Positions 1,555 to 50,135 of a stretch of 59,968 nucleotides of DNA are shown piece by piece. The notes beneath the pieces were generated by a model. That model had not been told where the DNA came from and did not search any database. It saw only the letters and a list, made by a program, of their open reading frames with translations. The first letter of the stretch is position 1. Each line of letters starts with the position of its first letter. The position numbers and the translations under genes are program-made. This DNA is from Nemertoderma westbladi (Eukaryota > Animalia > Xenacoelomorpha): positions 1 to 59,968 of the forward strand of contig JAUCBJ010008550.1 in assembly GCA_032718475.1 (NCBI GenBank), read 5' to 3'.

Positions 1555-1690
1555 GTACCATGAAGACAAATACGATAACTTTTTAAACGCGATGTGGTTA
1601 ATCGCGATTACATTTCTATCAATCGGATACGGAGACTTCGTACCCAATACATACTGCGGTCGCTTCGTCTCTATTATCACGGGAATTCTG
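1555..1690 (+). CDS. KCNN: SK/KCNN Ca2+-activated K+ channel, pore-loop exon (upstream exons lie outside the window)
   Basis: Poly-T tract + tag acceptor and GTGAGT donor. Reads (R)[45 protein letters not shown], with the GYG selectivity filter in the SK-specific context [16 protein letters not shown]. Confidence 0.96.
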
Positions 1691-4983: not shown

Positions 4984-5094
4984 GGCGCGGGGTGCACCGC
5001 TCTAGTCGTCGCAGTTCTCGCTCGTAAATTGGAACTTAGTAGAGCTGAGAAGCATGTTCATAACTTTATGATGGACACTCAACTTTCAAAAAAG
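4984..5094 (+). CDS. KCNN: SK/KCNN exon, S6 and start of the calmodulin-binding region
   Basis: ttacag acceptor, AAG|GTAAGA donor, 111 nt, phase 0/0. Reads [37 protein letters not shown], a near-invariant SK motif. Confidence 0.97.
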
Positions 5095-5950
5095 GTAAGA
5101 AGAAGAGCTCTGCGTATATTTTGGATAACGTTGTATATTTATGTTAACTGTGGTTGATTTGTTATTACGGTATATGAATGGGAGAATCTTTTAGGCTCGG
5201 TAAACCAAGGAATGCCTGTTCACCACCATGGGTGATCTTCCACAATTGATAATTGATTTCAATGCATTATATTAATTAACCTAATATGAGAAACATATTT
5301 CAATAGGTCATGTCATATCGATTAATTTTGCTGCTGCATATTAATATATGAAAATAATCTCTAAATAATTTAGGTTTCAATTATATAACCGTTGGAGATA
5401 AAATGTGGCGGCGGTGGCACATTTTATACACTATGACGTGGAATATAGTGTCGTTATTCAGGAACCTGCCCCCCCCCCCCCCCACAAATTTTTTACAATT
5501 TGATTGCATGAAATTTGAAACAGAGATAGTTTCACCTCCCTCCTCCTTGCTGGGTGAGCCAGAATTTCTATTCTTGTTTTCATTCTTTATCTACAAGCGT
5601 TTGAAAAAGGTGTCTGTGACGTTTTTGCACCAGTGACACCGCAGTTATTCTTCAACCTTATAGTGATTTGATTGGTAATCTTAGAAAGCTGGCTATGCAA
5701 GGATTCCAAATATGTAACATAATCTGAATTTCGTCGTAAAATAGCTGAGATACGAGCGTTCAAAAGTTGCATAGCTCTGATATTCTTAGAATTAACAAAT
5801 AACTTGATAACAAGTACATTTTGTAGGCGAAATAAAATAGTATATCTACCTTCTCAAAGTTATTAAAAACTTATTTTATGTGTGAACATTTTCATGAATA
5901 TTATATCGATGTTAGGAAATAATATTATTACTTTATTTGAATTTGTGCAG

Positions 5951-6078
5951 ATGAAAAATTCCGCAGCCAATGTTCTCAGAGAAACTTGGATGATTTACAA
6001 ACATACAAAGTTGGCGAAGAGAATCCGACCCAGAGTGGTTCGGCAACACCAACGCAACTTCTTACATGCCATACACAG
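5951..6078 (+). CDS. KCNN: SK/KCNN exon, calmodulin-binding domain helix
   Basis: tgcag acceptor; reads [42 protein letters not shown] + AG, then CAG|GTAAGC donor. Matches the SK motif [16 protein letters not shown]...HQRKFLQAIH. Confidence 0.96.
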
Positions 6079-9000
6079 GTAAGCGCTTACATACCATACA
6101 CAGGTAAGTGTTTGCACACCAAACAGAGGTAAGTGATTACACACCATACCCAGGTAAGTGCTTACACACCATACACAGGTAAGTGCTTACACACCATACA
6201 AAGGTAATTGTTTGCACACCATACACAGGTAAGTGCTTACACACCACACACCCAGTGCTTTCTTACCATATACAGGTAAGTGCTTACACACCATACACAG
6301 GTAAGTGCTTGCACACCATACACAGGTAAGAGCTTACACACCATACACCAAGTGCTTACACACCATACACAGGTAAGTGCACCAACACCATACACAGGTA
6401 AGTGCTTACACACCATACACAGGTAAGGGCTTCACCATACACCAAGTGTTTACACACCAAATACAGGTAAGTGCTTACACACCATACACCAATTGCTTAC
6501 ACACCATACACAGGTAAGTGTGCTTACACACCATACACGTGTAAGTGCTTACATACCATACACCAAGTGCTTACGCACCATATACAGGTAAGTGCTTACA
6601 CACCATACACAGGTAAGTGCTTACACACCATACACAGGTAAGTGCTTACACACCATACACCAAGTGCTTACACACCATATACAGGTAAGTGCTTACACAC
6701 CACCATACACAGGTAAGTATGCTTACACACCATACACAGGTAAGTGCACCTACACCATACACAGGTAAGTGCTTACACACCATACACAGGTAAGGGCTTA
6801 CACACCATACACCAAGTGCTTACACACCATACACAGGTACGTGTACTTACACACCATACACATGTAAGTGCTTACACACCATACACCAAGTGCTTACACA
6901 CCATACACAGGTAAGTGCTTACACACCATACACAGGTAAGTGCTTACACACCATACACCAAGTGCTTACACACCATACACAGGTAAGTGCTTACACACCA
7001 TACAAAGGTAAGTGTTTGCACACCATACACAGGTAAGTGCTTACACACCACACACCCAGTGCTTTCTTACCATATACAGGTAAGTGCTTACACACCATAC
7101 ACAGGTAAGTGCTTGCACAACATACACAAGTAAGAGCTTACACACCATACACCAAGTGCTTACACACCATACACAGGTAAGTGTACTTACACACCATACA
7201 CATGTAAGTGCTTACACACCATACACCAAGTGCTTACACACCATACACAGGTCAGTGCTTACACACCAAACACAGGTAAGTGCTTACACACCATACACAG
7301 GTAAGTGCTTACACACCATACAAAGGTAAGTGTTTGCACACCATACACAGGTAAGTGCTTACACACCACACACCCAGTGCTTTCTTACCATATACAGGTA
7401 AGTGCTTACACACCATACACAGGTAAGTGCTTGCACACCATACACAAGTAAGAGCTTACACACCATACACCAAGTGCTTACACACCATACACAGGTAAGT
7501 GTACTTACACACCATACACATGTAAGTCCTTACACACCATACACCAAGTGCTTACACACCATACACAGGTCAGTGCTTACACACCAAACACAGGTAAGTG
7601 CTTACACACCATACACATGTAAGTGCTTACACACCATACACCAAGTACTTACACACCATACACAGGTAAGTGCTTACACACCATACAAAGGTAAGTGTTT
7701 GCACACCATACACAGGTAAGTGCTTACACACCACACACCCAGTGCGTTCTTACCATATACAGGTAAGTGCTTACACACCATATACAGGTAAGTGCTTACA
7801 CACCATACACAGGTAAGTGCTTACACACCATACACAGGTAAGTGCTTACACACCATACACCAAGTGCTTACGCACCATATACAGGTAAGTGCTTACACAC
7901 CACCATACACAGGTAAGTATGCTTACACACCATACACAGGTAAGTGCACCTACACCATACACAGGTAAGGGCTTACACACCATACACCAAGTGCTTACAC
8001 ACCATACACATGTAAGTGCTTACACACCATACACCAAGTGCTTACACACCATACACAGGTAAGTGCTTACACACCAAACACAGGTAAGTGCTTACACACC
8101 ACACACCCAGTGCTTTCTTACCATATACAGGTAAGTGCTTACACACCATACACAGGTAAGTGCTTGCACACCATACACAGGTAAGAGCTTACACACCATA
8201 CACCAAGTGCTTACACACCGTACACAGGTAAGTGTACTTACACACCAATACACATGTAAGTGCTTACACACCATACACCAAGTGCTTGCACACCATACAC
8301 AGGTAAGTGCTTACAGACCAAACACAGGTAAGTGCTTACACACCATACACAGGTAAGTGCTTACACACCATACACCAAGTTCTTACACCCCATACACAGG
8401 TAAGTGCTTACACACCATACAAAGGTAAGTGTTTGCACACCATACACAGGTAAGTGCTTACACACCACACACCCAGTGCTTTCTTACCATATACAGGTAA
8501 GTGCTTACACACCATATACAGGTAAGTGCTTACACACCATACACAGGTAAGTGCTTACACACCATACACAGGTAAGTGCTTACACACCATACACCAAGTG
8601 CTTACACACCATACACCAAGTGCTTACACACCATATACAGGTAAGTGCTTACACACCATACACAGGTAAGTGCACCCCCACCATACACAGGTAAGTGCTT
8701 ACACACCATACATAGGTAAGGGCTGCTTACACACCAGACACAGGTAAGTGCTTACACACCATACACAGGTAAGGGCTGCTTACACACCAGACACGGGTAA
8801 GTGCTTACACACCATACACAGGTAAGTGCTTACACATCATATACAGGTAAGTGCTTACACACCATACACCAAGTGCTTACACACCATATACAGGTAAGTG
8901 CTTACACACCATACACAGGTAAGTGCACCCCCACCATACACAGGTAAGTGCTTACACACCATACACAGGTAAGGGCTGCTTACACACCAGACACAGGTAA

Positions 9001-12000
9001 GTGCTTACAAACCTTACACAGGTAAGTGCTTACACACGATACACGGGTTAAGTGCTTACAAACCATACACAGGTAAGTGTTTGCACACCATACACAGGTA
9101 AGTGATTACACACCATACACAGGTAAGTGTTTGCACACCATACACAGGTAAGTGATTGCACACCAAACACAGGTAAGGGTTTGCACATCATACACAGGTA
9201 AGTGTTTGCACACCATACACAGGTAAGTGTTTACACATCATACACAAGTAAGTGTTTACACTCCATACACAGGTAAGTGTTTGTACACCATACACAGGTA
9301 AGTGATGACACACCATACACAGGTAAGTGTTTGCACACCATACACAGGTAAGTGTTTGTACACCATACACAGGTAAGTGATGACACACCATACACAGGTA
9401 AGTGTTTGCACATCATATACAGGTAAGTGTTTGCACACCATACACAGGTAAGTGTTTGCATACCATACACAGGTAAGTGATTACACACCATACACAGGTA
9501 AGTGTTTGCACACCATACACAGGTAAGTGATTGCACACCAAACACAGGTAAGGGTTTGCACATCATACACAGGTAAGTGTTTGCACATCATATAAGGTAA
9601 GTGTTTGCATACCATACACAGGTAAGTGTTTGCACACCATACACAGGTAAGTGTTTGCATACCATACACAGGTAAGTGATTACACACCATACACAGGTAA
9701 GTGTTTGCACACCATACACAGGTAAGTGATTGCACACCAAACACAGGTAAGGGTTTGCACATCATACACAGGTAAGTGTTTGCACATCATATAAGGTAAG
9801 TGTTTGCATACCATACACAGGTAAGTGTTTGCACACCATACACAGGTAAGTGTTTGCATACCATACACAGGTAAGTGTTTGCACACCATACACAGGTAAG
9901 TGTTTGCATACCATACACAGGTAAGTGATTACACACCATACACAGGTAAGTGTTTGCATACCATACACAGGTAAGTGATTACACACCATACACAGGTAAG
10001 TGCTTACACACCATACACAGGTAAGTGCTTACACACCATACACCAAGTGCTTACACACCATATACAGGTAAGTGTTTACACACCACCATACACAGGTAAG
10101 TATGCTTACACACCATACACAGGTAAGTGCACCTACACCATACACAGGTAAGTGCTTACACACCATACACAGGTAAGGGCTTACACACCATACACCAAGT
10201 GCTTACACACCATACACAGGTAAGTGCTTACACACCATACACAGGTAAGTGCTTACACACCATACACCAAGTGCTTACACACCATACACAGGTAAGTGCT
10301 TACACACCATACAAAGGTAAGTGTTTGCACACCATACACAGGTAAGTGCTTACACACCACACACCCAGTGCTTTCTTACCATATACAGGTAAGTGCTTAC
10401 ACACCATACACAGGTAAGTGCTTGCACAACATACACAAGTAAGAGCTTACACACCATACACCAAGTGCTTACACACCATACACAGGTAAGTGTACTTACA
10501 CACCATACACATGTAAGTGCTTACACACCATACACCAAGTGCTTACACACCATACACAGGTCAGTGCTTACACACCAAACACAGGTAAGTGCTTACACAC
10601 CATACACAGGTAAGTGCTTACACACCATACAAAGGTAAGTGTTTGCACACCATACACAGGTAAGTGCTTACACACCACACACCCAGTGCTTTCTTACCAT
10701 ATACAGGTAAGTGCTTACACACCATACACAGGTAAGTGCTTGCACACCATACACAAGTAAGAGCTTACACACCATACACCAAGTGCTTACACACCATACA
10801 CAGGTAAGTGTACTTACACACCATACACATGTAAGTCCTTACACACCATACACCAAGTGCTTACACACCATACACAGGTCAGTGCTTACACACCAAACAC
10901 AGGTAAGTGCTTACACACCATACACATGTAAGTGCTTACACACCATACACCAAGTACTTACACACCATACACAGGTAAGTGCTTACACACCATACAAAGG
11001 TAAGTGTTTGCACACCATACACAGGTAAGTGCTTACACACCACACACCCAGTGCGTTCTTACCATATACAGGTAAGTGCTTACACACCATATACAGGTAA
11101 GTGCTTACACACCATACACAGGTAAGTGCTTACACACCATACACAGGTAAGTGCTTACACACCATACACCAAGTGCTTACGCACCATATACAGGTAAGTG
11201 CTTACACACCACCATACACAGGTAAGTATGCTTACACACCATACACAGGTAAGTGCACCTACACCATACACAGGTAAGGGCTTACACACCATACACCAAG
11301 TGCTTACACACCATACACATGTAAGTGCTTACACACCATACACCAAGTGCTTACACACCATACACAGGTAAGTGCTTACACACCAAACACAGGTAAGTGC
11401 TTACACACCACACACCCAGTGCTTTCTTACCATATACAGGTAAGTGCTTACACACCACACACAGGTAAGTGCTTGCACACCATACACAGGTAAGAGCTTG
11501 CACACCATACACCAAGTGCTTACACACCGTACACAGGTAAGTGTACTTACACACCAATACACATGTAAGTGCTTACACACCATACACCAAGTGCTTGCAC
11601 ACCATACACAGGTAAGTGCTTACACACCAAACACAGGTAAGTGCTTACACACCATACACAGGTAAGTGCTTACACACCATACACCAAGTTCTTACACACC
11701 ATACACAGGTAAGTGCTTACACACCATACAAAGGTAAGTGTTTGCACACCATACACAGGTAAGTGCTTACACACCACACACCCAGTGCTTTCTTACCATA
11801 TACAGGTAAGTGCTTACACACCATATACAGGTAAGTGCTTACACACCATACACAGGTAAGTGCTTACACACCATACACAGGTAAGTGCTTACACACCATA
11901 CACCAAGTGCTTACACACCATATACAGGTAAGTGCTTACACACCACCATACACAGGTAAGTATGCTTACACACCATACACAGGTAAGTGCACCTACACCA

Positions 12001-15000
12001 TACACAGGTAAGTGCTTACACACCATACACAGGTAAGGGCTTACACACCATACACCAAGTGCTTACACACCATACACAGGTAAGTGTACTTACACACCAT
12101 ACACATGTAAGTGCTTACACACCATACACCAAGTGCTTACACACCATACACAGGTAAGTGCTTACACACCAAACACAGGTAAGTGCTTACACACTATACA
12201 CAGGTAAGTGCTTACACACCATACACCAAGTGCTTACACACCATATACAGGTAGGTGCTTACACACCACCATACACAGGTAAGTGTGCTTACACAATACA
12301 CAGGTAAGTGCTTACACTACATACACAGGTAAGGGCTTATACACCATACACCAAGTGCTTACACACCATATACCGGTAAGTGCTTACACACCATACACAG
12401 GTAAGTGCACCCCCACCATACACAGGTAAGTGCTTACACACCATACATAGGTAAGGGCTGCTTACACACCAGACACAGGTAAGTGCTTACACACCATACA
12501 CAGGTAAGGGCTGCTTACACACCAGACACGGGTAAGTGCTTACACACCATACACAGGTAAGTGCTTACACATCATATACAGGCAAGTGCTTACACACCAT
12601 ACACCAAGTGCTTACACACCATATACAGGTAAGTGCTTACACACCATACACAGGTAAGTGCACCCCCACCATACACAGGTAAGTGCTTACACACCATACA
12701 CAGGTAAGGGCTGCTTACACACCAGTCACAGGTAAGTGCTTACAAACCTTACACAGGTAAGTGCTTACACACGATACACGGGTTAAGTGCTTACAAACCA
12801 TACACAGGTAAGTGTTTGCACACCATACACAGGTAAGTGATTACACACCATACACAGGTAAGTGTTTGCACACCATACACAGGTAAGTGATTGCACACCA
12901 AACACAGGTAAGGGTTTGCACATCATACACAGCTAAGTGTTTGCACACCATACACAGGTAAGTGTTTACACATCATACACAAGTAAGTGTTTACACTCCA
13001 TACACAGGTAAGTGTTTGTACACCATACACAGGTAAGTGATGACACACCATACACAGGTAAGTGTTTGCACACCATACACAGGTAAGTGTTTGTACACCA
13101 TACACAGGTAAGTGATGACACACCATACACAGGTAAGTGTTTGCACATCATATACAGGTAAGTGTTTGCACACCATACACAGGTAAGTGTTTGCATACCA
13201 TACACAGGTAAGTGATTACACACCATACACAGGTAAGTGCTTACACACCATACAAAGGTAAGTGTTTGCACACCATACACAGGTAAGTGCTTACACACCA
13301 CACACCCAGTGCTTTCTTACCATATACAGGTAAGTGCTTACACACCATACACAGGTAAGTGCTTGCACACCATACACAAGTAAGAGCTTACACACCATAC
13401 ACCAAGTGCTTACACACCATACACAGGTAAGTGTACTTACACACCATACACATGTAAGTCCTTACACACCATACACCAAGTGCTTACACACCATACACAG
13501 GTCAGTGCTTACACACCAAACACAGGTAAGTGCTTACACACCATACACATGTAAGTGCTTACACACCATACACCAAGTACTTACACACCATACACAGGTA
13601 AGTGCTTACACACCATACAAAGGTAAGTGTTTGCACACCATACACAGGTAAGTGCTTACACACCACACACCCAGTGCGTTCTTACCATATACAGGTAAGT
13701 GCTTACACACCATATACAGGTAAGTGCTTACACACCATACACAGGTAAGTGCTTACACACCATACACAGGTAAGTGCTTACACACCATACACCAAGTGCT
13801 TACGCACCATATACAGGTAAGTGCTTACACACCACCATACACAGGTAAGTATGCTTACACACCATACACAGGTAAGTGCACCTACACCATACACAGGTAA
13901 GGGCTTACACACCATACACCAAGTGCTTACACACCATACACATGTAAGTGCTTACACACCATACACCAAGTGCTTACACACCATACACAGGTAAGTGCTT
14001 ACACACCAAACACAGGTAAGTGCTTACACACCACACACCCAGTGCTTTCTTACCATATACAGGTAAGTGCTTACACACCACACACAGGTAAGTGCTTGCA
14101 CACCATACACAGGTAAGAGCTTGCACACCATACACCAAGTGCTTACACACCGTACACAGGTAAGTGTACTTACACACCAATACACATGTAAGTGCTTACA
14201 CACCATACACCAAGTGCTTGCACACCATACACAGGTAAGTGCTTACACACCAAACACAGGTAAGTGCTTACACACCATACACAGGTAAGTGCTTACACAC
14301 CATACACCAAGTTCTTACACACCATACACAGGTAAGTGCTTACACACCATACAAAGGTAAGTGTTTGCACACCATACACAGGTAAGTGCTTACACACCAC
14401 ACACCCAGTGCTTTCTTACCATATACAGGTAAGTGCTTACACACCATATACAGGTAAGTGCTTACACACCATACACAGGTAAGTGCTTACACACCATACA
14501 CAGGTAAGTGCTTACACACCATACACCAAGTGCTTACACACCATATACAGGTAAGTGCTTACACACCACCATACACAGGTAAGTATGCTTACACACCATA
14601 CACAGGTAAGTGCACCTACACCATACACAGGTAAGTGCTTACACACCATACACAGGTAAGGGCTTACACACCATACACCAAGTGCTTACACACCATACAC
14701 AGGTAAGTGTACTTACACACCATACACATGTAAGTGCTTACACACCATACACCAAGTGCTTACACACCATACACAGGTAAGTGCTTACACACCAAACACA
14801 GGTAAGTGCTTACACACTATACACAGGTAAGTGCTTACACACCATACACCAAGTGCTTACACACCATATACAGGTAGGTGCTTACACACCACCATACACA
14901 GGTAAGTGTGCTTACACAATACACAGGTAAGTGCTTACACTACATACACAGGTAAGGGCTTATACACCATACACCAAGTGCTTACACACCATATACCGGT

Positions 15001-18000
15001 AAGTGCTTACACACCATACACAGGTAAGTGCACCCCCACCATACACAGGTAAGTGCTTACACACCATACATAGGTAAGGGCTGCTTACACACCAGACACA
15101 GGTAAGTGCTTACACACCATACACAGGTAAGGGCTGCTTACACACCAGACACGGGTAAGTGCTTACACACCATACACAGGTAAGTGCTTACACATCATAT
15201 ACAGGCAAGTGCTTACACACCATACACCAAGTGCTTACACACCATATACAGGTAAGTGCTTACACACCATACACAGGTAAGTGCACCCCCACCATACACA
15301 GGTAAGTGCTTACACACCATACACAGGTAAGGGCTGCTTACACACCAGTCACAGGTAAGTGCTTACAAACCTTACACAGGTAAGTGCTTACACACGATAC
15401 ACGGGTTAAGTGCTTACAAACCATACACAGGTAAGTGTTTGCACACCATACACAGGTAAGTGATTACACACCATACACAGGTAAGTGTTTGCACACCATA
15501 CACAGGTAAGTGATTGCACACCAAACACAGGTAAGGGTTTGCACATCATACACAGCTAAGTGTTTGCACACCATACACAGGTAAGTGTTTACACATCATA
15601 CACAAGTAAGTGTTTACACTCCATACACAGGTAAGTGTTTGTACACCATACACAGGTAAGTGATGACACACCATACACAGGTAAGTGTTTGCACACCATA
15701 CACAGGTAAGTGTTTGTACACCATACACAGGTAAGTGATGACACACCATACACAGGTAAGTGTTTGCACATCATATACAGGTAAGTGTTTGCACACCATA
15801 CACAGGTAAGTGTTTGCATACCATACACAGGTAAGTGATTACACACCATACACATGTAAGTGTTTGCACACCATACACAGGTAAGTGATTGCACACCAAA
15901 CACAGGTAAGGGTTTGCACATCATACACAGGTAAGTGTTTGCACATCATATAAGGTAAGTGTTTGCATACCATACACAGGTAAGTGTTTGCACACCATAC
16001 ACAGGTAAGTGTTTGCATACCATACACAGGTAAGTGATTACACACCATACACAGGTAAGTGTTTGCACACCATACACAGGTAAGTGATTGCACACCAAAC
16101 ACAGGTAAGGGTTTGCACATCATACACAGGTAAGTGTTTGCACATCATATAAGGTAAGTGTTTGCATACCATACACAGGTAAGTGTTTGCACACCAAACA
16201 CAGGTAAGTGCTTACACACCATACACAGGTAAGTGCTTACACACCATACACCAAGTTCTTACACACCATACACAGGTAAGTGCTTACACACCATACAAAG
16301 GTAAGTGTTTGCACACCATACACAGGTAAGTGCTTACACACCACACACCCAGTGCTTTCTTACCATATACAGGTAAGTGCTTACACACCATATACAGGTA
16401 AGTGCTTACACACCATACACAGGTAAGTGCTTACACACCATACACAGGTAAGTGCTTACACACCATACACCAAGTGCTTACACACCATATACAGGTAAGT
16501 GCTTACACACCACCATACACAGGTAAGTATGCTTACACACCATACACAGGTAAGTGCACCTACACCATACACAGGTAAGTGCTTACACACCATACACAGG
16601 TAAGGGCTTACACACCATACACCAAGTGCTTACACACCATACACAGGTAAGTGTACTTACACACCATACACATGTAAGTGCTTACACACCATACACCAAG
16701 TGCTTACACACCATACACAGGTAAGTGCTTACACACCAAACACAGGTAAGTGCTTACACACTATACACAGGTAAGTGCTTACACACCATACACCAAGTGC
16801 TTACACACCATATACAGGTAGGTGCTTACACACCACCATACACAGGTAAGTGTGCTTACACAATACACAGGTAAGTGCTTACACTACATACACAGGTAAG
16901 GGCTTATACACCATACACCAAGTGCTTACACACCATATACCGGTAAGTGCTTACACACCATACACAGGTAAGTGCACCCCCACCATACACAGGTAAGTGC
17001 TTACACACCATACATAGGTAAGGGCTGCTTACACACCAGACACAGGTAAGTGCTTACACACCATACACAGGTAAGGGCTGCTTACACACCAGACACGGGT
17101 AAGTGCTTACACACCATACACAGGTAAGTGCTTACACATCATATACAGGTAAGTGCTTACACACCATACACCAAGTGCTTACACACCATATACAGGTAAG
17201 TGCTTACACACCATACACAGGTAAGTGCACCCCCACCATACACAGGTAAGTGCTTACACACCATACACAGGTAAGGGCTGCTTACACACCAGACACAGGT
17301 AAGTGCTTACAAACCTTACACAGGTAAGTGCTTACACACGATACACGGGTTAAGTGCTTACAAACCATACACAGGTAAGTGTTTGCACACCATACACAGG
17401 TAAGTGATTACACACCATACACAGGTAAGTGTTTGCACACCATACACAGGTAAGTGATTGCACACCAAACACAGGTAAGGGTTTGCACATCATACACAGC
17501 TAAGTGTTTGCACACCATACACAGGTAAGTGTTTACACATCATACACAAGTAAGTGTTTACACTCCATACACAGGTAAGTGTTTGTACACCATACACAGG
17601 TAAGTGATGACACACCATACACAGGTAAGTGTTTGCACACCATACACAGGTAAGTGTTTGTACACCATACACAGGTAAGTGATGACACACCATACACAGG
17701 TAAGTGTTTGCACATCATATACAGGTAAGTGTTTGCACACCATACACAGGTAAGTGTTTGCATACCATACACAGGTAAGTGTTTGCACACCATACACAGG
17801 TAAGTGTTTGCACACCATACACAGGTAAGTGTTTGCACACCATACACAGGTAAGGGTTTGCACACCATACACAGGTAAGTGTTTGCACACCATACACAGG
17901 TAAGTGATTGCACACCAAACACAGGTAAGGGTTTGCACATCATACACAGGTAAGTGTTTGCACATCATATAAGGTAAGTGTTTGCATACCATACACAGGT

Positions 18001-18465
18001 AAGTGTTTGCACACCATACACAGGTAAGTGTTTGCATACCATACACAGGTAAGTGATTACACACCATACACAGGTAAGTGTTTGCACACCATACACAGGT
18101 AAGTGATTGCACACCAAACACAGGTAAGGGTTTGCACATCATACACAGGTAAGTGTTTGCACATCATATAAGGTAAGTGTTTGCATACCATACACAGGTA
18201 AGTGTTTGCACACCATACACAGGTAAGTGTTTGCATACCATACACAGGTAAGTGATTACACACCATACACAGGTAAGTGTTTGCACACCATACACAGGTA
18301 AGTGATTGCACACCAAACACAGGTAAGGGTTTGCACATCATACACAGGTAAGTGTTTGCACATCATATAAGGTAAGTGTTTGCATACCATACACAGGTAA
18401 GTGATTACACACCATATACAGGTAATTGTTTGCAGACCATACACAGGTAAGTATTTGCACACCAT
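6060..18465 (+). repeat. 25-bp satellite (CACCATACACAGGTAAGTGCTTACA / ...GTGTTTGCA), roughly 500 units with higher-order repeats
   Basis: Directly visible tandem array with two subtypes plus 21-bp deletion variants. Identical blocks recur at offsets of 3309, 2623, 1944 and 199 bp, as shown by duplicated ORF translations. Confidence 0.99.
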
Positions 18466-18521
18466 CATAAACATTATAATTATAGTTTATAATTACATAC
18501 CTCTTTAGTTTATTTAAATTT

Positions 18522-20035
18522 AAATTATTAAGTTATTAATTATTAAGTTATTAATTATTAAGTTATTAATTATTAATTTATTAATTATTACGTTATTAAT
18601 TATTAAGTTATTAATTATTAAGTTAGTAATTATTAAGTTATTAATTATTAAGTTATTAATTATTAAGATATTAATTATTAAGTTATTAATTATTAAGTTA
18701 TTAATTATTAAGTTATTAATTATTAAGTTATTAATTATTAAGTTATTAATTATTAAGTTATTAAGTTATTAATTATTAAGTTATTAATTATTAAGTTATT
18801 AATTATTAAGTTATTAATTATTAAGTTATTAATTATTAAATTATTAAGTTATTAATTATTAAGTTATTAATTATTAAGTTATTAATTATTAAGTTATTAA
18901 TTATTAAGTTATTAATTATTTAAATTATTAAGTTATTAATTATTAAGTTATTAATTATTAAGTTATTAATTATTAAGTTATTAATTATTAAGTTATTAAT
19001 TATTAAGTTATTAATTATTAAGTTATTAATTATTAAGTTATTAATTATTAAGTTATTAATTATTAAGTTATTAATTATTAAGTTATTAATTATTAAGTTA
19101 TTAATTATTAAGTTATTAATTATTAAATTATTAAGTTATTAATTATTAAGTTATTAATTATTAAGTTATTAATTATTAAGTTATTAATTATTAAGTTATT
19201 AATTATTAAGTTATTAATTATTAAGTTATTAATTATTAAGTTATTAATTATTAAGTTATTAATTATTAAGTTATTAATTATTAAGTTATTAATTATTAAG
19301 TTATTAATTATTAAGTTATTAATTATTAAGTTATTAATTATTAAGTTATTAATTATTAAGTTATTAATTATTAAGTTATTAATTATTAAGTTATTAATTA
19401 TTAAGTTATTAATTATTAAGTTATTAATTATTAAGTTATTAATTATTAAGTTATTAATTATTAAGTTATTAATTATTAAGTTATTAATTATTAAGTTATT
19501 AATTATTAAGTTATTAATTATTAAGTTATTAATTATTAAGTTATTAATTATTAAGTTATTAATTATTAAGTTATTAATTATTAACTTATTAATTATTAAG
19601 TTATTAATTATTAAGTTATTAATTATTAAGTTATTAATTATTAAGTTATTAATTATTAAGTTATTAATTATTAAGTTATTAATTATTAAGTTATTAATTA
19701 TTAAGTTATTAATTATTAAGTTATTAATTATTAAGTTATTAATTATTAAGTTATTAATTATTAAGTTATTAATTATTAAGTTATTAATTATTAAGTTATT
19801 AATTATTAAGTTATTAATTATTAAGTTATTAATTATTAAGTTATTAATTATTAAGTTATTAATTATTAAGTTATTAATTATTAAGTTATTAATTATTAAG
19901 TTATTAATTATTAAGTTATTAATTATTAAGTTATTAATTATTAAGTTATTAATTATTAAGTTATTAATTATTAAGTTATTAATTATTAAGTTATTAATTA
20001 TTAAGTTATTAATTATTAAGTTATTAATTATTAAG
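18522..20035 (+). repeat. 15-bp AT-rich satellite (TTATTAAGTTATTAA)n, about 100 units
   Basis: Directly visible, nearly homogeneous array that ends exactly at the exon acceptor AG (20034-20035). Confidence 0.99.
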
Positions 20036-20179
20036 TATGCGAAAAACGAAGTTGGATCAGCGCAAAATTGTCGAACACGGAAATAATATGGCTGATGTGA
20101 TGAAAACTGGAACCATGACTCACGATATCGTCAATGATCTGCAAGATAGACAAATGGATCTTAATGATAAGTTGATCAG
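20036..20179 (+). CDS. KCNN: SK/KCNN exon, distal CaMBD / coiled coil
   Basis: Starts right after the last TTAAG of the AT array. The phase-2 join AG+T gives Ser, then MRKTKLDQRKIVEHGNNMADVMKTGTMTHDIVNDLQDRQMDLNDKLI, colinear with SK LRSVKMEQRKL...DLAK..MYD...DL. Donor CAG|GTACAA. Confidence 0.88.
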
Positions 20180-21044
20180 GTACAAAGATTTATATATTTG
20201 AATATCAACTGTTACGACTTAAGGTTATGTTTTATATATTTATCTAACAGTATGGTTACTAACCGAATTTCTAATGTATCGCTGATATTTTCATGTATTG
20301 GAAGAAAATAATAACTCAAATCATATAAAGTACACATCCTTTGAGGTAGACTAGACAGACATGTCTTTATTGCAAAGATTAATAATTGTGTGGCCTGACA
20401 ACAAATTACATAATTCATAATAATTAATAAATCATAATTTTACATAATTATAATCACAAATTTTCTACCAGTTATTGTACTTTGTTTGGATTTATTCCTA
20501 AATTACTTTTGTTGAATTCCGCTATTGGAGATGTTGCGAGCTCATCTATCTACAATGCAACAGCGATATTTCTTCCCAAAATTTGTAGCAACATGTTGAC
20601 AAGTTCCAAGTTGGTTTCAAAAGAACTCAAGTGCTACAATGTGCACTTCGGTAATTGTAAAAGAATAATTATTTTTCAGGATTTCTTGCTTCATGTACAT
20701 AATAGTGTAATTTGCTGTAATCAAGAGATTGGGTTTCTTTATTTGTAGAACGTCTAAAAGAAAGGTTCTCTACACCTTATTATGTAAACTCTTACTGTAA
20801 ATTATATCAAACTCCACCAAAGTTCCTATGATAATAATGATAAATCAATCGCAGTTGTAATGGATTGATGCAAAGTCATCATCTTTTAAATTTTTGGGGA
20901 TTGGATTAGGACAATTCATTTATTGTATATACTTCTCCATGTTTCTTTCCATAACTAGATTTGATTCAACAAAATAACATATTGTAAAATTAAAATATAA
21001 CAATTTACTTAGCTGTTATTGAACTAATATCATTTATTCTACAG

Positions 21045-21333
21045 GATTGAGCAGAGTCTGACAGCTATGCAGTCATATTTAGACATATTGCCAGAGATTA
21101 TGCGACAAACTATGAAGGAATCTTTAACGCAATCTCAACATCCCCAACGTCCACCGCACCTTAAAGATTTACGCCGTGATGATAACGTGAAGCCGCAACA
21201 ATTCAACGAGGGGTCGACATCAGGAGAGGTCTACCATCCGCCAATCACGATATCGCAGGACCCGTCCTCGAAAACTCGTATAGAAGGCACTGCTAGTGTT
21301 CCTGAGATCCATTTCAAAAGCAGTATACTCTAA
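21045..21333 (+). CDS. KCNN: SK/KCNN terminal coding exon
   Basis: tttattctacag acceptor. The phase-2 join AG+G gives Arg, then IEQSLTAMQSYLDILPEIMRQTM..., like the SK C-terminal coiled coil LP..I.Q. In frame with ORF 21067-21333, ending at TAA. Confidence 0.85.
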
Positions 21334-21681
21334 TTATTTTCAAAATAATTTTTTTAAACACAAGTAATGCACAACTGTTTTCGACTCATACTGTAAGTAA
21401 TGAATAATAGTTTGATTATAAGAGTACAGAATGGATTGATTGGATGCTTGAATGTTAGATTATGTGCCTTTTTGGTTAGCGATATTGGTAATTTTAGGAA
21501 AACCATCAATGGAAATGTAAAGATTTGACTGAAGCCTACAACTGAAATATAATCGTGTAAGTCTGGTAATTTAGCAATATTTATGATGTGTTATGACGAA
21601 GTACGTAAGTTTATTCTAGAATTGATAACATTATTTTTATTTTTTATGTAAAAACTAACACATACAGTAAGTACAGTAGAT

Positions 21682-23317: not shown

Positions 23318-23516
23318 TTAAGAGATAAACATATACAATCATAAGATATTAAACAATTTTATTACCTTAAAAACCATTGCTGTATATTATCTACTAACTA
23401 CCATCAATAATTCGGAATTATTTGAATTTTATTGAATTTTGTGATTTTGGTTAACGATTTTATGGTTTATAAAACTCAATAAACCTACTGTAGTATATAT
23501 ATTGGACGATACATTG

Positions 23517-26500
23517 ATGGATCAGGACGAAACTATACTGGGTGGATCCCCGATCGTCCAGGATAATCCGCTAGCTGCCAGTGCGTCAGCATCATTGAAC
23601 TCTCCAGTTTGGTCTCCGGGAGCGAGGGCCAGTGCCATCATATCTAGGATTCGGAGCCCCGGTACAGGGTCTGCTTTGGGGTCAGCAGTTAAAGACCCCG
23701 AACTTTTCAGATCCAGACATTTCAGACTTTCCAGTCGGGTCCCCCTGCAGTCCAGTCGGTGCGCCCAGCAGTCCAGACGGGTCCCCCATCAGTCCAGTTG
23801 GGTCCCCCATCAGTCCAGTCGGTGCGCCCAGCAGTCCAGTCGGGTCCCCCATCAGTCCAGGTCGGGTCCCCCATATGTCCAGTCCAGTCGGGTCGCCCAG
23901 CAGTCCCAGTCGGGCCCCCATCAGTCCAGTCGGGTCCCCCAGCAGATCCAGTTGGGTCCCCCATCCAGACCAGTCGGGTCCTTCAGGAGTCCAGTCGGGT
24001 CCCCCAGCAGTCCAGTCGGGTCCCCCATCAGACCAGTCGGGTCCCTCAGGAGTCCAGTCGGGTCCCCCAGCAGTCCAGTCGGGTCCCCCATCAGACCAGT
24101 CGGGTCCCTCAGGAGTCCAGTCGGGTCTCCCAGCAGTCCAGTCGGGTCCCCCTTCAGACCAGTCGGGTCCCCCATCAGTCCTCCAGCAGTCCAGTTGGGT
24201 CCCCCTTCAGACCAGTCGGGTCCCTCAGGAGCCCAGTCGGGTCCCCCTGCAGTCCAGTCAGGTCCCCCATCAGACCAGTCGGGTCCCTCAGGAGTCCAGT
24301 CGGGTCCCCCAGCAGTCCAGTCGGGTCCCCCTTCAGACCAGTCGGGTCCCCCTTCAGTCCGGTCGGGTCCCCCAGCAATCCAGCCGGGTCCCCCACCAGT
24401 CCAGTTGGCACCCTCGGCATCTATCGGTCGACCTCTGCCATCCTCCCTGTCCAGTGTTGTACTCACTTCAACAAGTCGAGTCGACTCCGCAGTATGGTTC
24501 AATGAATCCTTGCCCAGGCACCAAATAATAGAGTCAATCAACACAGTGTACAACAGCATAGTACACTGGCGGCCAAACCTATTCCTGGTTCCTCAGGGGG
24601 CCGTGGGTAGAGAATTGGTGGCAGAGATTTCTCGGTTGTTGGCGCTGGCAATCAGTGAAAATCCCCTACATGAGGTCGCCCTCACGGCAATGATGATATT
24701 GCCAGCTCTCCTCTTACAGAAACCGAGTCGGTCTTCAACCACGGCCACACACCGGCACATTCTCCAACGCCGTCTGGTGAGCTGGAGGGAAGCAAAATTC
24801 GACGAACTCATGGTGGAGGCCAGGGCCATTCAGACACACCTTCCTAAGCGACGACCCCCAGCCTCTCAGGACGTAGCACTCCAGAAGGCGTTCACCCGCC
24901 ACATGCTGACTGGGAATATTTCGGCGGCGACGAGAGTTCTTGGACAGTTACACCGCGGTTCTCCACTGAGTCTGAATGACTCATTCACGGACAAAGATGG
25001 GAAAACCAAGGTGGTCCGGGATGTTCTGCGAGCGAAACATCCTCCAGCGCAGCACGCAGACGAGTCGACCCTGCTATCGCACTTCCCTGAGGCGCCACAG
25101 CACCACAGCGTTGTGTTTGAGGCGATCGATGGGAAGCTCATCCTTGGGAGCTTGCTTAGAATGAAGGGAAACGCCGCGGGTCCATCGGGAGTTGATGTTC
25201 AGGGTTGGAAGCACCTCCTTACCCGGTTTCGGACACAGTCTTCCGAGCTGGGTGAGAGGATCGCAGACTTGGCGAAACAACTCGCACAGACCAAGACTTC
25301 TCAGGGGTCTCTATCTGCGCTACTGTCTGCCAGACTTATTGCACTGGACAAAAACCCGGGTGTCAGACCCATAGGAATAGGTGAGGTGTTGCGCCACGTC
25401 ATAGGTAAATCTATCACCCATTGTATCCGTCAGGATCTTGAGTCTGTCGGTGGGAACACCCAACTCTGCCTGGGTCAGAAGGCTGCATTGAATTCGCCAT
25501 CCACAGCCTCACGATGGAGTGGGACTCGGACGACTGTGACGGGGTTCTACAGATAGACGGTACAAACGCCTTCAACGTACTGAACCGTTCGGCTGCCCTC
25601 CACAACATTGGAGTTGTCTGCCCTGCCCTTCTCACCATAGTCACCAATTGCTACAGCGAACCAGCTCGACTCTTTGTGGGAGGGGAGACGTTGCTCTCTG
25701 AAGAGGGGACCACACAGGGTGACCCCATTGCCATGGCGATGTATGGGTGCTCCATTATGCCACTATTAGCTGCGTTGGGACGTGCAAGCAAGGCCACACA
25801 GCGGTGGTATGCGGATGATGGCAATGCGGCAGGAAAACTCACTGACCTACGGGCCTTCCTAGAGGTCGCTACCACAATGGGTCCTCTCTTCGGCTACTTC
25901 CCATCCAAGTGTCACCTCACAGTGAAACCAGCAATGTTGGAAGAGGCTGAGATTCTTTTCGCCAATACTGGTGTCGCCATCAACACGACAGGCCATGAGC
26001 TACTCGACGGGGTTGTTGGCACAGAGGAGTATCGCACCATGTTCCTAGAAGAGAAGGCTCAGGAGTTCGCCATGGAAGTGGATCTTCTCGCAGGGGTGGC
26101 AGCAGTGGACCCCCACTGTGCGTACGCGGGCCTCGCGTTTGGCCTTGCCTGTCGGTGGCGGTTCATCACCCGTGTTGTATCCACCGCGCCAGCCCATCTC
26201 ACCCTGTTGGAGGAAGCTGTAAATCGATTCCTTTGCCGTCTCACCGATCGGCCAGCCATCTCAAAAGAGGAACGCCTGTTACTTTTCCTGCCAGTCCGTG
26301 ACGGGGGTATCGGCATTCCGGTGCCCACTGACCTGTCACATCAGTATACCAGCTCGCTTCGGGTCTGTGAGCCATTCATCAGCGCCACACCAGATACAAT
26401 GGCGCAGGTCCGGGAGAAACAAAAGGAGGTGGTGGGCAGGTTGAAGGTAGAGGCGCTGCTCCAGTCGATGGAAAAGAGAGAGGAAGTGGTGGGAATATTA

Positions 26501-26953
26501 TCTCCTCCCCAGCGGCACAACGAGATCTGGGACTTTGTCGCTGATGCTCTGACGGAGGTGTCACATAATGTGGCTGTGGAGCCAGTCCTCCAACCGCTAA
26601 CGGGCGAGCAGTTTGAACACCGCAGCACTTCAACGGACCAGCTGGTGAGATTGGACATCTCAGTGAGCGGCTTCTGGGGCAATCGGTTCCAGAAGACGTT
26701 CCTGGACGTCTCAGTCTTCAATCCACTGGCAGAAACTAATGCTGCCATGTCCCTACCGTCAGCACACCTTTACCATGAAGCGCGGAAGAACCTAAAGTAT
26801 CAGGAACGAGTGAGGGAGGTGGAACACGCCACCTTCACTCCTCTGATATTCTCCGCGTTTGGTGGTATGGCGCCTTCGGCCATACATCTGGTGAAGCGGT
26901 TGGCGCACCGCCTGGCGGAGAAGCGAGAAACGCGGTATGCGGAGTGCATCACA
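23517..26953 (+). mobile_element. CRE-clade-like non-LTR retrotransposon (RT + restriction-like endonuclease), disrupted
   Basis: RT motifs IALDKNPGVRPIGIGEVLR, DGTNAFN, GTTQGDPIAM, WYADD. RLE motifs RHNEI...RLDISVSGFW...FLDVSVFNP...HEARKNLKY...FTPLIFSAFGGM. One-base frameshift near 25485 (GQKA[G]IEFAIHSL), zinc-knuckle region missing before RHN, 3' end cut off. Confidence 0.88.
23730..24410 (+). repeat. GC-rich ~21-bp minisatellite (CAGTCCAGTCGGGTCCCCC..) within the CRE-like ORF
   Basis: Directly visible; translates as QSSRVP / SPVGSP / VQSGPP repeats. Confidence 0.93.
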
Positions 26954-26971
26954 TACTACTACTACTACTAG

Positions 26972-28951: not shown

Positions 28952-29985
28952 TCAGGAGATTGCAGTAAATATAGTGGTAAATACAGAAGTATCAGAGAGT
29001 TTCCCCAGGCGACATCCCTTTTTTTTTATCAGACATACAGACTTGAAATGTCCGATGAGTCCACAATAAACACATTGCTTACCTTTAGCCGGACAGAACG
29101 ACCTTGCATGCGGATTAAGACCACAAAAAAACATTTTCTATTTGGTGTAGTTCTGGGAACTTGTAATCGATAACGTGATTGCAAACAGGTTCTTTCACAT
29201 TGGTTTTGCTGCTTATTGCGTCTGTATGAAAACGTTCTAGCTGAATAACAAGAACCAGTTTCGTCATATAGTTCTAATATATAGCACTTGTTGCTGTGGA
29301 TGATGTTGCTGATGTTGCTGATGTTCTTGCTGTGGAAGACCGCGAACTGCACCGTGAACTGTTAAGAATATCGAGTCAAAGTTTATCTGGTATTAAAGCA
29401 AGTACGAGTAATGCTTAAGCAACCGCGGAGATACGCTCGCTGCTCACGTTGACTAAACCTAAACAAGTTGTTCGATGAAAAATAATCTTCGAAGCATGTA
29501 CGCCAAACAATAAAATCCGAAAGGCTCGTATCGGACTGAAGCTTTTAAGGCCATATTAATCCTCTGCGCTTGATTTGTGGCCGCAGAAGAGTGTGACTGT
29601 TCTACGGATTGCTGGTTTTGTTCCCAAATCCATCGGATGCGTCGAATTTTCGCTTCTAGTTTCTGGACATTATCCTCCATAATCTCAAAGGATGAATAAT
29701 GAGTTTCTTGATCGGCTTGGATGTTCTCTAATTCATGACATAATAAAATTGAGGAACTATATTTAGCTAATGACCTTTCAACGATTTGTAAAAAATTCCT
29801 CAGCATCTCTAATATTCTCAATTTCAGCGGGTAAACCTCCGGAAGCGGGAAGTTGATCGATGCTATTCGTTAGTTGAGCAACATCGCGTTCTGCTTTGGA
29901 GGCATATTGACCCCGACTTCTGCATGCAGTGCTAATGGTGGGTTCTTTGCCGGTAGACTCCATACCGGTATGGTTGCAGTATGGG
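28952..29985 (-). pseudogene. Degenerate Gypsy (Mag-like) gag fragment
   Basis: Paired zinc knuckles CFFCGLNPHARSFCPAKGKQCVYCGLIGHFKSVC, preceded by a fragmented helical coding region on the minus strand. Confidence 0.65.
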
Positions 29986-29989
29986 AAGT

Positions 29990-31171
29990 TTAGGCTCAGA
30001 ATCACCTAACTGGCGGGTAATTCAATGCGGCTCAAGATTTGTTTCAGATACTGAAAGCAGATATGCGGTTTGTGAAATAGAATTATTAGCGATACATTGG
30101 GCTATAAATAAATGTCGTATATATTTGTTGGGTTTTCATGGTTTCACAGTGGTAACAGACCACAAACCCTTGATATCGATTTGTAATGGCTTGAGTCTGG
30201 ATGCGATTGACAACCCTCGGTTACAGAGGATACTGGAGAAGTTGGGATCATATGTATTTACTGTTGAATGGAAAAGGGGCAAAGAACTTTGTGTTCCCGA
30301 TGCACTCAGTTGTGCTCCAGTTAGCAAGCCTTCAGTTGCTGAAATATCTGACCTAGAGGTTGACAATATGTTCAGTAATCAGATATTGGTCGCAAGCTTA
30401 AATTCTCTAAAGAAAGATTTGAATACCTTGGGAACCCAAGATTGTGCTTTAGAGTTCATAAAAAAATAAATTCTCATTGACAATGATTACAAGTCAATTT
30501 GTAAAGTACTAACTCAAGATACACAAATATCAGATTTACCAATGCAACCTCCGGCTCGAGTGTACGGCAAGCTCTGGGATCGCATATCGATCTCTGATGG
30601 AATGATAATTCTCGATGGAAATCGTATCATATTGCCTGCTAGTACTCGACCTGAAATTTTACGACGCTTGCATTCTTCCCATCAGGGTATTACGAAAACA
30701 AAGGCAAGAGCGAATCAATTATTTTATTGGCCTGGGATGACCAATGATATTATACAAACTGTAAATAGTTGCGAGCTTTGTCAGAAATATCAACCGAGTC
30801 TACCTACAACTAAGGAACCACTTCTGTCCGATTCAGTGACAAACCATCCTTTCCATTCTGCATCATTGGATTTGTTTCAATATGGAGATCAATATTTTTT
30901 GGTATATGTCGACCATTATACAGGATGGCCATGTGTAGACTTTTATGATAAAGTACCTTCAACATCCACTGTGGTCAGATCTCTAAAGAGGTTTTTTGTT
31001 GATTTTGGAATCCCAACATCCACTGTGGTCAGATCTCTAAAGAGGTTTTTTGTTGATTTTGGAATCCCGGTGAAACTTCGAAGTGATGGCGGCTCACAGT
31101 ACACATCATTGGAATTTAGAGAATTTTGCAAGGAATATGGCAACGACAGAGAAAACATTTCATCAGCATAA
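29990..31171 (+). pseudogene. Gypsy pol fragment: RNase H + integrase, truncated
   Basis: RNase H motifs ESRYAVCEIELLAI...VVTDHKPL...DALS. Integrase H2C2 LHSSHQG...FYWPGM...CELCQ and core SLDLF...SDGGSQYTS. Contains a frameshift, an in-frame 54-bp duplication, and lacks the final catalytic Glu region. Confidence 0.92.
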
Positions 31172-33994: not shown

Positions 33995-34170
33995 GCAGCT
34001 TGGTCTAGTGGTGACATTCCTGGGCTTCCATTCAGGAAGCCCTGGTTCGATCCCTAGATGGGGGCAGCACTATTTGGGCACTGTGCTTTAAATGCTGCAG
34101 CCTAGCCCAACCCGGGCTTTCATCCTTGGATGGTTGGTAAATGGGAACCAAGGCAACGTGGGAAACAAAG
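33995..34170 (+). mobile_element. tRNA-derived SINE
   Basis: A box TGGTCTAGTGG and B box GGTTCGATCCC (34044-34054). The acceptor stem does not pair. Followed by CCAAC..GGCTTTCATCCTT..GGTTGGTAAATGGGAACCA, which resembles a conserved central domain of animal SINEs. Confidence 0.75.
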
Positions 34171-34616
34171 TAGAAGGGTTTACTGTGGAAGATCACCCAT
34201 GGTGGTGAACAGGCATTCCTTTAGGAACCAGAGTGGAAGGGTTTACTGTTGAAGATCACCGATGGTGGTGAACAGGCATTCCTTTAGGAAACAGTGGAAT
34301 TGTTTAATGTGGAAGATCACCCATGGTGGTGAACCAGCATTCCTTTAGGAAACACAGTGGAAGGGTTTATTGTGGAAGATCACCCATGGTGGTGAACAGG
34401 CATTCCTTAAGGAAACAGAGTGGAATGGTTTAATGTGGAAGATCACCCATGGTGGTGAACAGGCATTCCTTTAGTAAACAGAGTGGAAGGGTTTACTGTG
34501 GAAGATCACCCATGGTGGTGAACAGGCATTCCTTTAGGAACCAGAGTGGAAGGGTTTACTGTGGAAGATCACCCATGGTGGTGAACAGGCATTCCTTTTC
34601 GAAACAGAGTGGAATG
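34171..34616 (+). repeat. 63-bp minisatellite, left part (about 7 units)
   Basis: GTGGAAGGGTTTACTGTGGAAGATCACCCATGGTGGTGAACAGGCATTCCTTTAGGAAACAGA repeated; interrupted by the LTR element. Confidence 0.95.
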
Positions 34617-36810: not shown

Positions 36811-38101
36811 GTCAGAGTTTATGCGATTATTCGCAACATTCATGTCCCCAAGTTTATCCCTACAGTAATTGTGTTTGTTACACATACCGTTATAGTTAAA
36901 TTAACCCCGGTACTACACGGGCTGCTTGGCGTAGGACAAGACTGGTGACTTTGTGCTTCGGTCACTCCAGCAGATGCCGTGGTTCTTTTAACTGTTCAAG
37001 TATATTTAACTACTGATTATTTGTTGTACCAGTACTTGTACCTAATTTAGGGTTTAGTGTACAGTGCTTTCCGAGGTAATTAGTGTGTAGGCAGTATATT
37101 TGTGTTGTAAAGTGGTTAATAGGCACGCTGGATCTGGTAGTCCGCGGTAATTAACTTCTAGGTAGGAACACTCCGTGATACATAACGTAGTACCTATAGA
37201 GATACGGTTATAGGTCGTCAGGCGGTGGTATTTTCCTATCTGGACAGTGCAATATATTTACTACTACTTATTATTTCAAATACCGTAGTACCCTGTCCGT
37301 TGTAATAACCAGAATTCTAACCCTTTGTTAGGCTGGTTTGTAGACTTCCTGTAAAATTACCCTAAAAATTCGTACGTAATATTTTGTTGTGTTTAATTAG
37401 AGAATTAATCTCACCCGTATCGTAAGTAATTCGTAGTATTAAGTAACTTAGGTAAATTAGAATTATCTGTTTTAGTGTCCCATAAGTAGCACTCCACTGA
37501 GAGCGCACAGCTTCTGTGTAGTGACCCCCCAGAAATAATAACATTTATTTCAAATATTGACAAAACCCATTTTAAATGGGTATATATCTATTATAAATCA
37601 ACTCAAACGATTTATAAATAGTAGGCCTGCCATACAACAACTAGGTCTCAATATCAGTTGGACTACTGCTTAAATAACGGTAATAAAGTAAGTTAAAGTA
37701 ACCAAGTAACCCTAAAATATTCAGAAATTCAATTATTCTAAAATAATTGACATACCGGTATTTACCATAGGCTTATTAGATTTATTTCTATAAATTTGTG
37801 CTGAAATCATACCGGTATTCTGTAATTAATTCTAGTCCAGAATTATACTTATATACTATAAGTGTACGCTGCATACCGGTATTCACGATAGGCCTATTAT
37901 ATATTTATATATATTTGTACTAAAATTATATACCGGTACTCTGTGACAAACCTAGTTACAATACTTATATATACTATAAGTGTATACCGGTATTCTAATA
38001 TACTGCAATAAATTACTGGTACTAGGCCAACGGTCATACTGAATTACTAGTCTTGCTTTAACTGTAACTATAGCAGTAAGCATTCAACTGTATAGCTAAA
38101 C

Positions 38102-39650: not shown

Positions 39651-39708
39651 AGGCGGAGGAAATAGATCTCTTCTAAGCAGGCGTAGAAAAACATCTCACC
39701 GTCACAAA

Positions 39709-42339: not shown

Positions 42340-42444
42340 CAACAGGTATACCAAGTAAAGGAATGGGAAGTGGAGAGCAGTGATGTGGACGATCCAACTG
42401 AGGGAACACCATACTCCTCAGATAATGACGATATTAACTCCAAT

Positions 42445-42600
42445 GTAGATCAATGGAGACATTGCCTTGGGACGATTAATCCAGCCGACATCGCTTCCAG
42501 AGGAGCAACTCCTCAAGAACTGATAGATAATCCAGGCTGGTTAGGTGGATCCGACTTCTTAAGTAAAGAAGAAGAAGAATGGCCTCCTCATCTTACCACG
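42445..42600 (+). pseudogene. Remnant of BEL/Pao RNase H C-terminus
   Basis: QWRHCLGTINPADIASRG..P.EL....W.GG..FL.....WP. RT, most of RNase H and integrase are absent. Confidence 0.88.
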
Positions 42601-49984: not shown

Positions 49985-50135
49985 GAATGGTTTAATGTGG
50001 AAGATCGCCCATGGTGGTGAACAGGCATTCCTTTAGGAAACAGAGTGGAAGGGTATACTGTGGAAGATCACCCATGGTGGTGATTAGGCATCATTTAGGA
50101 AACGGAGTGGAATGGTTTACTGTGGAAGATCACAC
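49985..50135 (+). repeat. 63-bp minisatellite, right part (about 2.5 units)
   Basis: Continues the 34171-34616 array in register after the target-site duplication. Confidence 0.95.

Follow-up and report, generated by a model that had tools for sequence, protein, structure and literature searches.

The window analyzed here is a 59,968-nt stretch of the Nemertoderma westbladi assembly GCA_032718475.1 (contig JAUCBJ010008550.1, positions 1 to 59,968 of the forward strand). It carries five exons of an SK/KCNN channel gene, and the intron between two of these, exons C and D, consists of two minisatellites over 99.6% of its 13,957 nt: a 25-bp repeat (25-mer) that begins at the end of exon C, and a 15-bp repeat (15-mer) that ends at the acceptor of exon D. 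The sequence was compared with contigs assembled from sequencing runs, of which six, from three studies, are listed and four (X1 to X4) cover part of the window. X1 and X3 come from one sample, which may be the source of the assembly; X4 represents a separate sample and study, is labelled "DNA?", and was taken as RNA on account of its spliced contig. The features of the gene and of the intron are as follows.

1555..1690, plus strand: SK/KCNN pore exon with the GYG filter (Pfam Ion_trans_2, E = 1.4e-11; AG/GT borders; open frame)
4984..5094, plus strand: SK exon B, end of S6 (in frame; covered by the X4 spliced contig)
5951..6078, plus strand: SK exon C, first part of the calmodulin-binding domain (Pfam CaMBD, E = 1.3e-18; the X4 contig ends at 6078)
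6061..18465, plus strand: 25-bp minisatellite of exon end and donor copies (Tandem Repeats Finder [TRF], 501.5 copies)
6079..6090, plus strand: authentic donor CAG/GTAAGC, the first 12 intron bases being a perfect palindrome (letters matched in X1 and X2 DNA contigs)
10593..15854, plus strand: exact 2,639-bp repeat at an offset of 2,623 within the 25-mer array (exact-repeat scan)
18466..18522, plus strand: nonrepetitive spacer of 57 nt between the TRF arrays, with two unused AGs (18485 and 18508)
18523..20036, plus strand: 15-bp AT-rich quasi-palindromic minisatellite (TRF, 101.7 copies; 88 perfect units; last AG, 20034-20035, is the acceptor)
20036..20179, plus strand: SK exon D, second part of the calmodulin-binding domain, 144 nt (SK2 alignment; X4 contig)
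21045..21500, plus strand: last coding SK exon and 3′ untranslated region (UTR) (stop codon 21331-21333; GT..AG joint 20176 to 21042 in X4)

The coding parts of the five plus-strand exons (1555-1690, 4984-5094, 5951-6078, 20036-20179, and 21045-21333) join into one open reading frame with no internal stop, and all four introns between them are of the GT..AG type. The product contains a pore with the GYG filter followed by a calmodulin-binding domain, colinear with SK2, which identifies the gene as SK/KCNN. In a protein search (18 hits among 19 candidates), the best match showed 74% identity, and no close relative was found. Alignment to SK2 chain 9vu9_A placed exon C at residues 419 to 460 and exon D at residues 462 to 507; the single residue between the two aligned parts is the split codon of the phase 2, GT..AG intron at 6079-20035. 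The flanking exons are thus intact and in phase, as an initial annotation of the sequence had claimed. A crude motif scan found no upstream SK exon in 1-1554, and the X4 contig extends the 3′ UTR by about 230 nt beyond 21500. At four positions of the last exon and UTR (21321, 21330, 21442, and 21458), all four runs carry an identical alternative letter, and the window therefore represents a different haplotype or contains assembly errors at these sites.

The 25-mer array conforms to the roughly 500-copy satellite described in the initial annotation, beginning at the exon end. Each unit spans the exon/intron boundary, with 18 nt of exon and 7 nt of intron, and unit 0 of the array is the last 18 nt of exon C itself (6061-6078, codons L-H-A-I-H). 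These 18 nt are identical to the repeat consensus at 16 positions (13 of 15 outside the CAG, P ~ 9e-7 for even base frequencies), and by SK2 alignment they are conserved SK coding sequence. Because the exon end, which is in register with the donor, both matches the repeat and codes for residues conserved in SK, the 25-mer came from the exon and not the exon from the repeat, in keeping with the proposed derivation from the exon/donor junction. The 493 intronic units fall into 80 variant types arranged in nested higher-order blocks. The first three and the last three of them are unique types, whereas the interior consists of nested blocks, a pattern of concerted turnover. When 12-mer slots are compared at four diagnostic positions, 278 of the 321 that match fit a stepwise progression from the exon letters (1 slot) through three intermediates (2, 212, and 12 slots) to the type of the last unit (51 slots). 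Besides the exact 2,639-bp repeat, which reflects either a recent unequal crossover or overexpansion by the assembler, the array contains other exact repeats of 0.5 to 1.3 kb.

As copies of a splice junction, the units carry splice sites. A perfect CAG/GTAAGT (9 of 9 consensus positions) is present in 304 units, whereas the authentic donor matches at 8 of 9. The claim that the real donor is poorer than its decoys is correct in direction, but the gap is slight, and the real donor outscores the other three donors of the gene (7, 7, and 6 of 9). The array holds 378 AG/GT sites, 357 of which are YAG/GT.

At its downstream end, the 25-mer array gives way to the 57-nt spacer, close to the short unique stretch that had been noted, and then to the 15-mer array, which agrees with the description of about 100 copies ending at the acceptor of the next exon. 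The left edge of this array fades into a diverged unit, and 98 AGs lie within 18521-20035, the acceptor being the last. The unit ends at the acceptor AG but has a single base (T) in common with exon D. The 15-mer is therefore a repeat of the intron end, and the earlier description of it as a copy of the acceptor junction applies to its intronic side; its origin from the acceptor would follow by parsimony. In all, the array units retain the GT and AG of splice signals as 366 decoy donors and 97 decoy AGs. The spacer is likely a remnant of the ancestral intron. With both arrays collapsed, at minimum 86 nt are left, so that the present intron is 162-fold longer; the ancestral intron may have measured roughly 100 bp, as the initial annotation proposed. 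Within the spacer, the AG at 18508 sits behind a pyrimidine-rich stretch and looks as good as the real acceptor; neither it nor the AG at 18485 was used in the one X4 contig seen.

The possibility that the arrays are an assembly artefact was addressed with the DNA contigs. The passage from exon C into the array is crossed by contigs of X1 (to 6110), X2 (to 6091), and X3 (to 6131). Those of X1 (5743-6110) and X2 (5743-6091) show no differences from the window, and that of X3 (5725-6131) differs at three places, one of which is 6092. On the acceptor side, contigs of both X1 and X2 start at 20007, exactly where the assembly has its first unique 31-mer. Array size was judged from assembled-contig depths, which are not copy numbers and give rough figures. 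For the 15-mer, a 45-nt contig of X2 has a depth of 1806.7, compared with 21.5 for exon D, or 84x where the assembly predicts 82x; in X1 the summed depth is 436x, compared with 411x simulated. About 100 copies of the 15-mer thus roughly fit the contig depth. For the 25-mer, the summed depths (32x in X1, 164x in X2, and 33x in X3) demonstrate many copies but not 500 as such. Both exon borders therefore hold, as does, roughly, the size of the 15-mer array, but the size of the 25-mer array is not supported by depth.

A transcript junction between 6078 and 20036, as the initial annotation expected, was found in X4. A spliced contig of 1,583 nt (depth 46.3) covers exons B and C and ends at 6078, and a record of equal length, depth, and strand aligns to 20034-20176 and 21042-21500, skipping an 865-nt GT..AG intron. 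The coordinates of the two records abut: contig positions 833-962 lie on 5949-6078 and positions 692-834 on 20034-20176, with an AG common to both. The loose end before 20034 is the end of exon C, with exon-specific letters that are absent from the decoy units. Because the coordinates abut and the loose end carries these exon-only letters, the first donor is joined directly to the last acceptor in this one contig; normal mRNA is still made, with the most upstream donor in use. X4 is likely RNA; a retrocopy would give an identical junction. Neither cover over 6079-6135 nor a record skipping exon D was seen in X4, where contigs lose rare forms, so that this is no evidence of absence.

Use of any other site would be costly to the reading frame. 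Among the 367 donors and the 98 acceptors, just one of each leaves the frame open, and all decoys tested (366 donors and 97 acceptors) give an in-frame stop: any later donor retains the stop at 6080-6082, and each extra 15-mer adds a stop. In the nearest cases the distance from the stop to the last junction is 165 and 152 nt. A premature stop this far upstream of the last junction makes a transcript a target of nonsense-mediated decay (NMD) by the usual rule. Loss of exon D would be in-frame and cost the calmodulin-binding region 48 residues.

That splice junctions can occur in tandem copies is already known, and the novelty implied by the initial annotation does not stand in this respect. In amphioxus, tandem copies of exon/intron boundaries termed mirages have been described in Adh3, in the globin genes BflGb6 and BflGb9, and in PGBD5 (PMC3087553 and PMC3902484, both citing Canestro et al. 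2002). Mirages leave normal splicing undisturbed, and why splice junctions should seed minisatellites is called unclear (PMC3087553). The present arrays resemble them in their GT- or AG-bearing units, in affecting 5′ or 3′ boundaries, in normal splicing, and in edge units unlike the interior; the 25-mer is a mirage by definition, and the 15-mer works like one. The amphioxus globins, as described, have three to six units (BflGb6) or one duplicate, at one boundary per gene, whereas here about 500 and about 100 units occupy both ends of one intron and nearly fill it.

In human genes, splice-junction repeats occur in F7, IFI6 (6-16), CBS, LMNB2, and PDGF (PMC1557585). The 37-bp variable number tandem repeat (VNTR) in intron 7 of F7 is similar in that its first unit spans the exon/intron border and the most upstream tandem donor is chosen, even over stronger ones; in minigenes, however, pseudo-sites with a perfect consensus took about 70 to 90% of splicing from a weak upstream site (PMC1557585). 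F7 differs in having 5 to 26 units with identical weak sites. Here, 304 perfect decoys surpass the real site by one base, which is the regime in which the F7 pseudo-sites competed. The VNTR of ABCA7 intron 18 is closer in size, with a 25-bp unit starting at the donor and alleles of up to 10.7 kb (about 427 units), and use of its second-unit donor likewise creates an NMD target (PMC5954066). As described, its unit contains no exon sequence, it has no acceptor-side array, and its length has a measured effect on exon skipping. A parallel to the 15-mer is FRA16B, a structure-forming AT-rich minisatellite that expands from few to as many as 2,000 copies (PMC2875025); such expansions are not tied to a splice acceptor. 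In a literature search that covered few subscription papers, we found neither a published intron with both of its ends amplified nor a description of a palindromic origin of junction repeats. What is new here is the amplification of both ends of one intron, the scale, the self-complementary units, and the perfect decoys.

Sequence around the donor suggests how the arrays may have begun. An inverted repeat of 5 bp encloses the 25-mer unit: the array begins at CTTAC in the exon, the reverse complement of GTAAG in the donor. Of the four SK donors, that of the array alone is matched in this way within 40 nt. The perfect palindrome of the first 12 intron bases arises once the unit has been duplicated for the first time, and adjacent main-type units can form a pairing of 12 bp; the 15-mer contains an 11-nt quasi-palindrome. 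Hairpins formed by the inverted repeat in the 25-mer and by the quasi-palindrome in the 15-mer would have favored slippage, and kilobase-scale unequal exchanges would then have built the higher-order blocks of the 25-mer. Alternatively, the seed may have been an imperfect direct repeat, matching at 8 of 12 nt, that the exon end shares with the partial last unit. Intron gain through a duplicated AGGT site was also considered and was rejected on protein evidence, because a three-residue variation is found at this position in vertebrate SK2.

We consider it probable that both arrays grew neutrally, the 25-mer from its own donor junction and the 15-mer from its own acceptor end, and that they are tolerated through exon definition and use of the outermost sites. 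Under this proposal, replication slippage and unequal crossing-over would expand both arrays, and the spliceosome would define the flanking exons C and D, hence the use of the outermost sites. The first donor would emerge first from transcription and adjoins exon C, much as in the oriented-scanning model for F7; such positional choice is plausible because the real donor is strong. On the other side, the last AG adjoins exon D, and because the AU array folds on itself, this AG is predicted to pair less than all the others. The predictions give z scores of −3.4 (RNA) and −3.5 (DNA) for self-folding of the 15-mer array, and the real acceptor was easier to open than all but 0 to 6 of 97 decoys in 12 of 12 local settings; in a global fold, 5 of 97 decoy acceptors were less paired than the real AG. 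Acceptor accessibility would thus act in the right direction alongside exon definition. A slip to a decoy would bring a premature stop at least 150 nt upstream of the last junction, with removal by NMD, and because decoy products would be NMD targets, selection against the arrays may be weak.

Several points weigh against this account. The depth of the 15-mer in X3 is only 3 to 10x, at odds with X1 and X2; because X3 is also without cover over 20027-20368, this may reflect AT drop-out. For the 25-mer, simulated depth was anywhere between 1x and 1,053x depending on the assumed settings, so that depth does not fix the copy number, and the exact 2,639-bp tandem duplication leaves the assembled array length uncertain. 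The RNA evidence consists of one contig from the run labelled "DNA?"; since contigs lose rare forms and NMD conceals mis-splicing, it says nothing on rates. Structure does not favor the real donor: 99 to 160 of 364 decoys are predicted to be more open, and masking of the decoys by structure was rejected as the means by which the real donor is selected. Accessibility of the acceptor is itself a prediction and in part an edge effect. Position alone need not prevail over 304 perfect decoys, given the success of the perfect pseudo-sites in F7 minigenes. Finally, the case for a hairpin origin on the donor side is weak, because in most stretches the 25-mer is predicted to fold no better than shuffled sequence (z = −1.9 to +0.8, 7 of 7 folds), and the argument is post hoc.

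Other readings were weighed against neutral growth. The 25-mer array could be a recursive-splicing ladder, in which YAG/GT units serve as zero-length exons that regenerate a perfect donor and leave the final mRNA unchanged. Known ratchet sites are few and conserved, with strong U-rich tracts and a YAG/GT zero-length-exon motif; the motif is common to both, but here it occurs 357 times among the 378 AG/GT sites, as T-poor repeat copies. Upstream pyrimidines average 8.8 of 14, inside the range of the five real acceptors of the gene (7 to 12), 13 units reach the T count of the real acceptor (7), and the X4 junction fits one-step and stepwise removal alike. The CTTAC of each CTTAC-type unit, which we take to be a branch-like motif, counts on the same side, but it lies just 15 nt from the AG of its own unit, and T averages 3.4 of 14 as opposed to 7 to 10 at the five real acceptors. 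We regard such a ladder as unlikely. More elaborate, and unlikely as well, is the reading in which a satellite turned a tiny intron into its own ladder, with hundreds of AG/GT ratchet points for stepwise removal of the 12-kb array and with every acceptor except the last one concealed by self-pairing of the AU array. Length-dependent control, by which longer alleles would cause more exon D skipping or more use of NMD-bound decoys and so tune channel dose or calcium gating, appears about as unlikely as the simple ladder. In its favor, skipping of exon D retains the frame, and a three-residue splice insertion in the calmodulin-binding domain of SK2 shifts calcium sensitivity; at this very junction, PDB chain 3sjq_C is longer by three residues (50 to 55, compared with 68 to 70 in 1g4y_B), an insertion that we take to be the ARK variant of SK2. 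VNTR length in ABCA7 also raises skipping of the downstream exon 3- to 4-fold (PMC5954066). Rapid nested turnover of variants, in contrast, fits neutral minisatellite behavior, and the sole X4 record on the acceptor side includes exon D.

The remaining alternatives concern the 25-mer itself. Its junctions could be real and its length inflated by the assembly, the true intron being far below 14 kb: the exact repeats of 2,639 bp and of 0.5 to 1.3 kb point this way, as do the low summed depths in X1 and X3, and no run record spans the intron. Yet the 80 unit variants and the nested blocks with block-specific changes look like real turnover, about 390 units remain after the one exact repeat is dropped, and X2 reaches 164x, so that inflation of this degree seems unlikely as well. 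That the 25-mer is a dispersed satellite inserted at this site, with only a chance likeness to the exon end, is extremely unlikely. Nothing was found in favor of this reading, and it is contradicted by the 16 of 18 identity to conserved coding sequence in register with the donor, and by a search of both strands of the window that allowed up to 5 mismatches and found no other copy. In X1, moreover, the summed depth of the 25-mer is about 1,100, compared with about 1,250,000 for a dispersed 63-bp repeat, making it roughly a thousandfold rarer by contig depth and speaking against an abundant satellite. Within the window and the four runs, this reading is refuted.

That 63-bp repeat, a major dispersed satellite by its depth in X1, occurs in the window at 5207-5244, 34161-34614, and 49985-50133, forming tandem arrays and, within the SK intron at 5095-5950, a fragment. 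Downstream of the SK gene, all further features noted lie on the plus strand. At 23445-26971, two overlapping long frames (703 and 509 amino acids) have no Pfam hit, are preceded by a 21-bp tandem array (23730-24405), and carry what we take to be reverse-transcriptase-like motifs; the region is likely a broken non-long terminal repeat (non-LTR) retrotransposon. Pol fragments of an LTR retrotransposon lie at 29957-31171, with hits to rve, RT_RNaseH, and an integrase zinc finger; a stop and a duplication of 54 bp break them up. The region 38096-48659 contains a 918-amino-acid frame with DUF1759, presumably a BEL/Pao-type gag, flanked by frames of 348, 1,175, and 333 amino acids without a Pfam hit. 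A 678-amino-acid open frame at 54557-56593, also without a Pfam hit, adjoins a 68-bp array (52569-53333) and carries motifs that we assume to be transposase-like.

Gene predictors and assemblers alike are misled by introns of this make. The question of why splice junctions seed minisatellites may have a testable answer in the self-complementary units. The intron is a natural stress test of splice-site choice, setting position and exon context against site strength: 304 perfect donors follow a real one that is slightly weaker, and 97 acceptors nearly identical to the real one precede it. Because the +6 base is C in the real donor and T in the perfect decoys, ordinary RNA reads could separate one-step from recursive removal. 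If the ladder reading were true, these would be repeats that carry the signals rendering their own expansion harmless.

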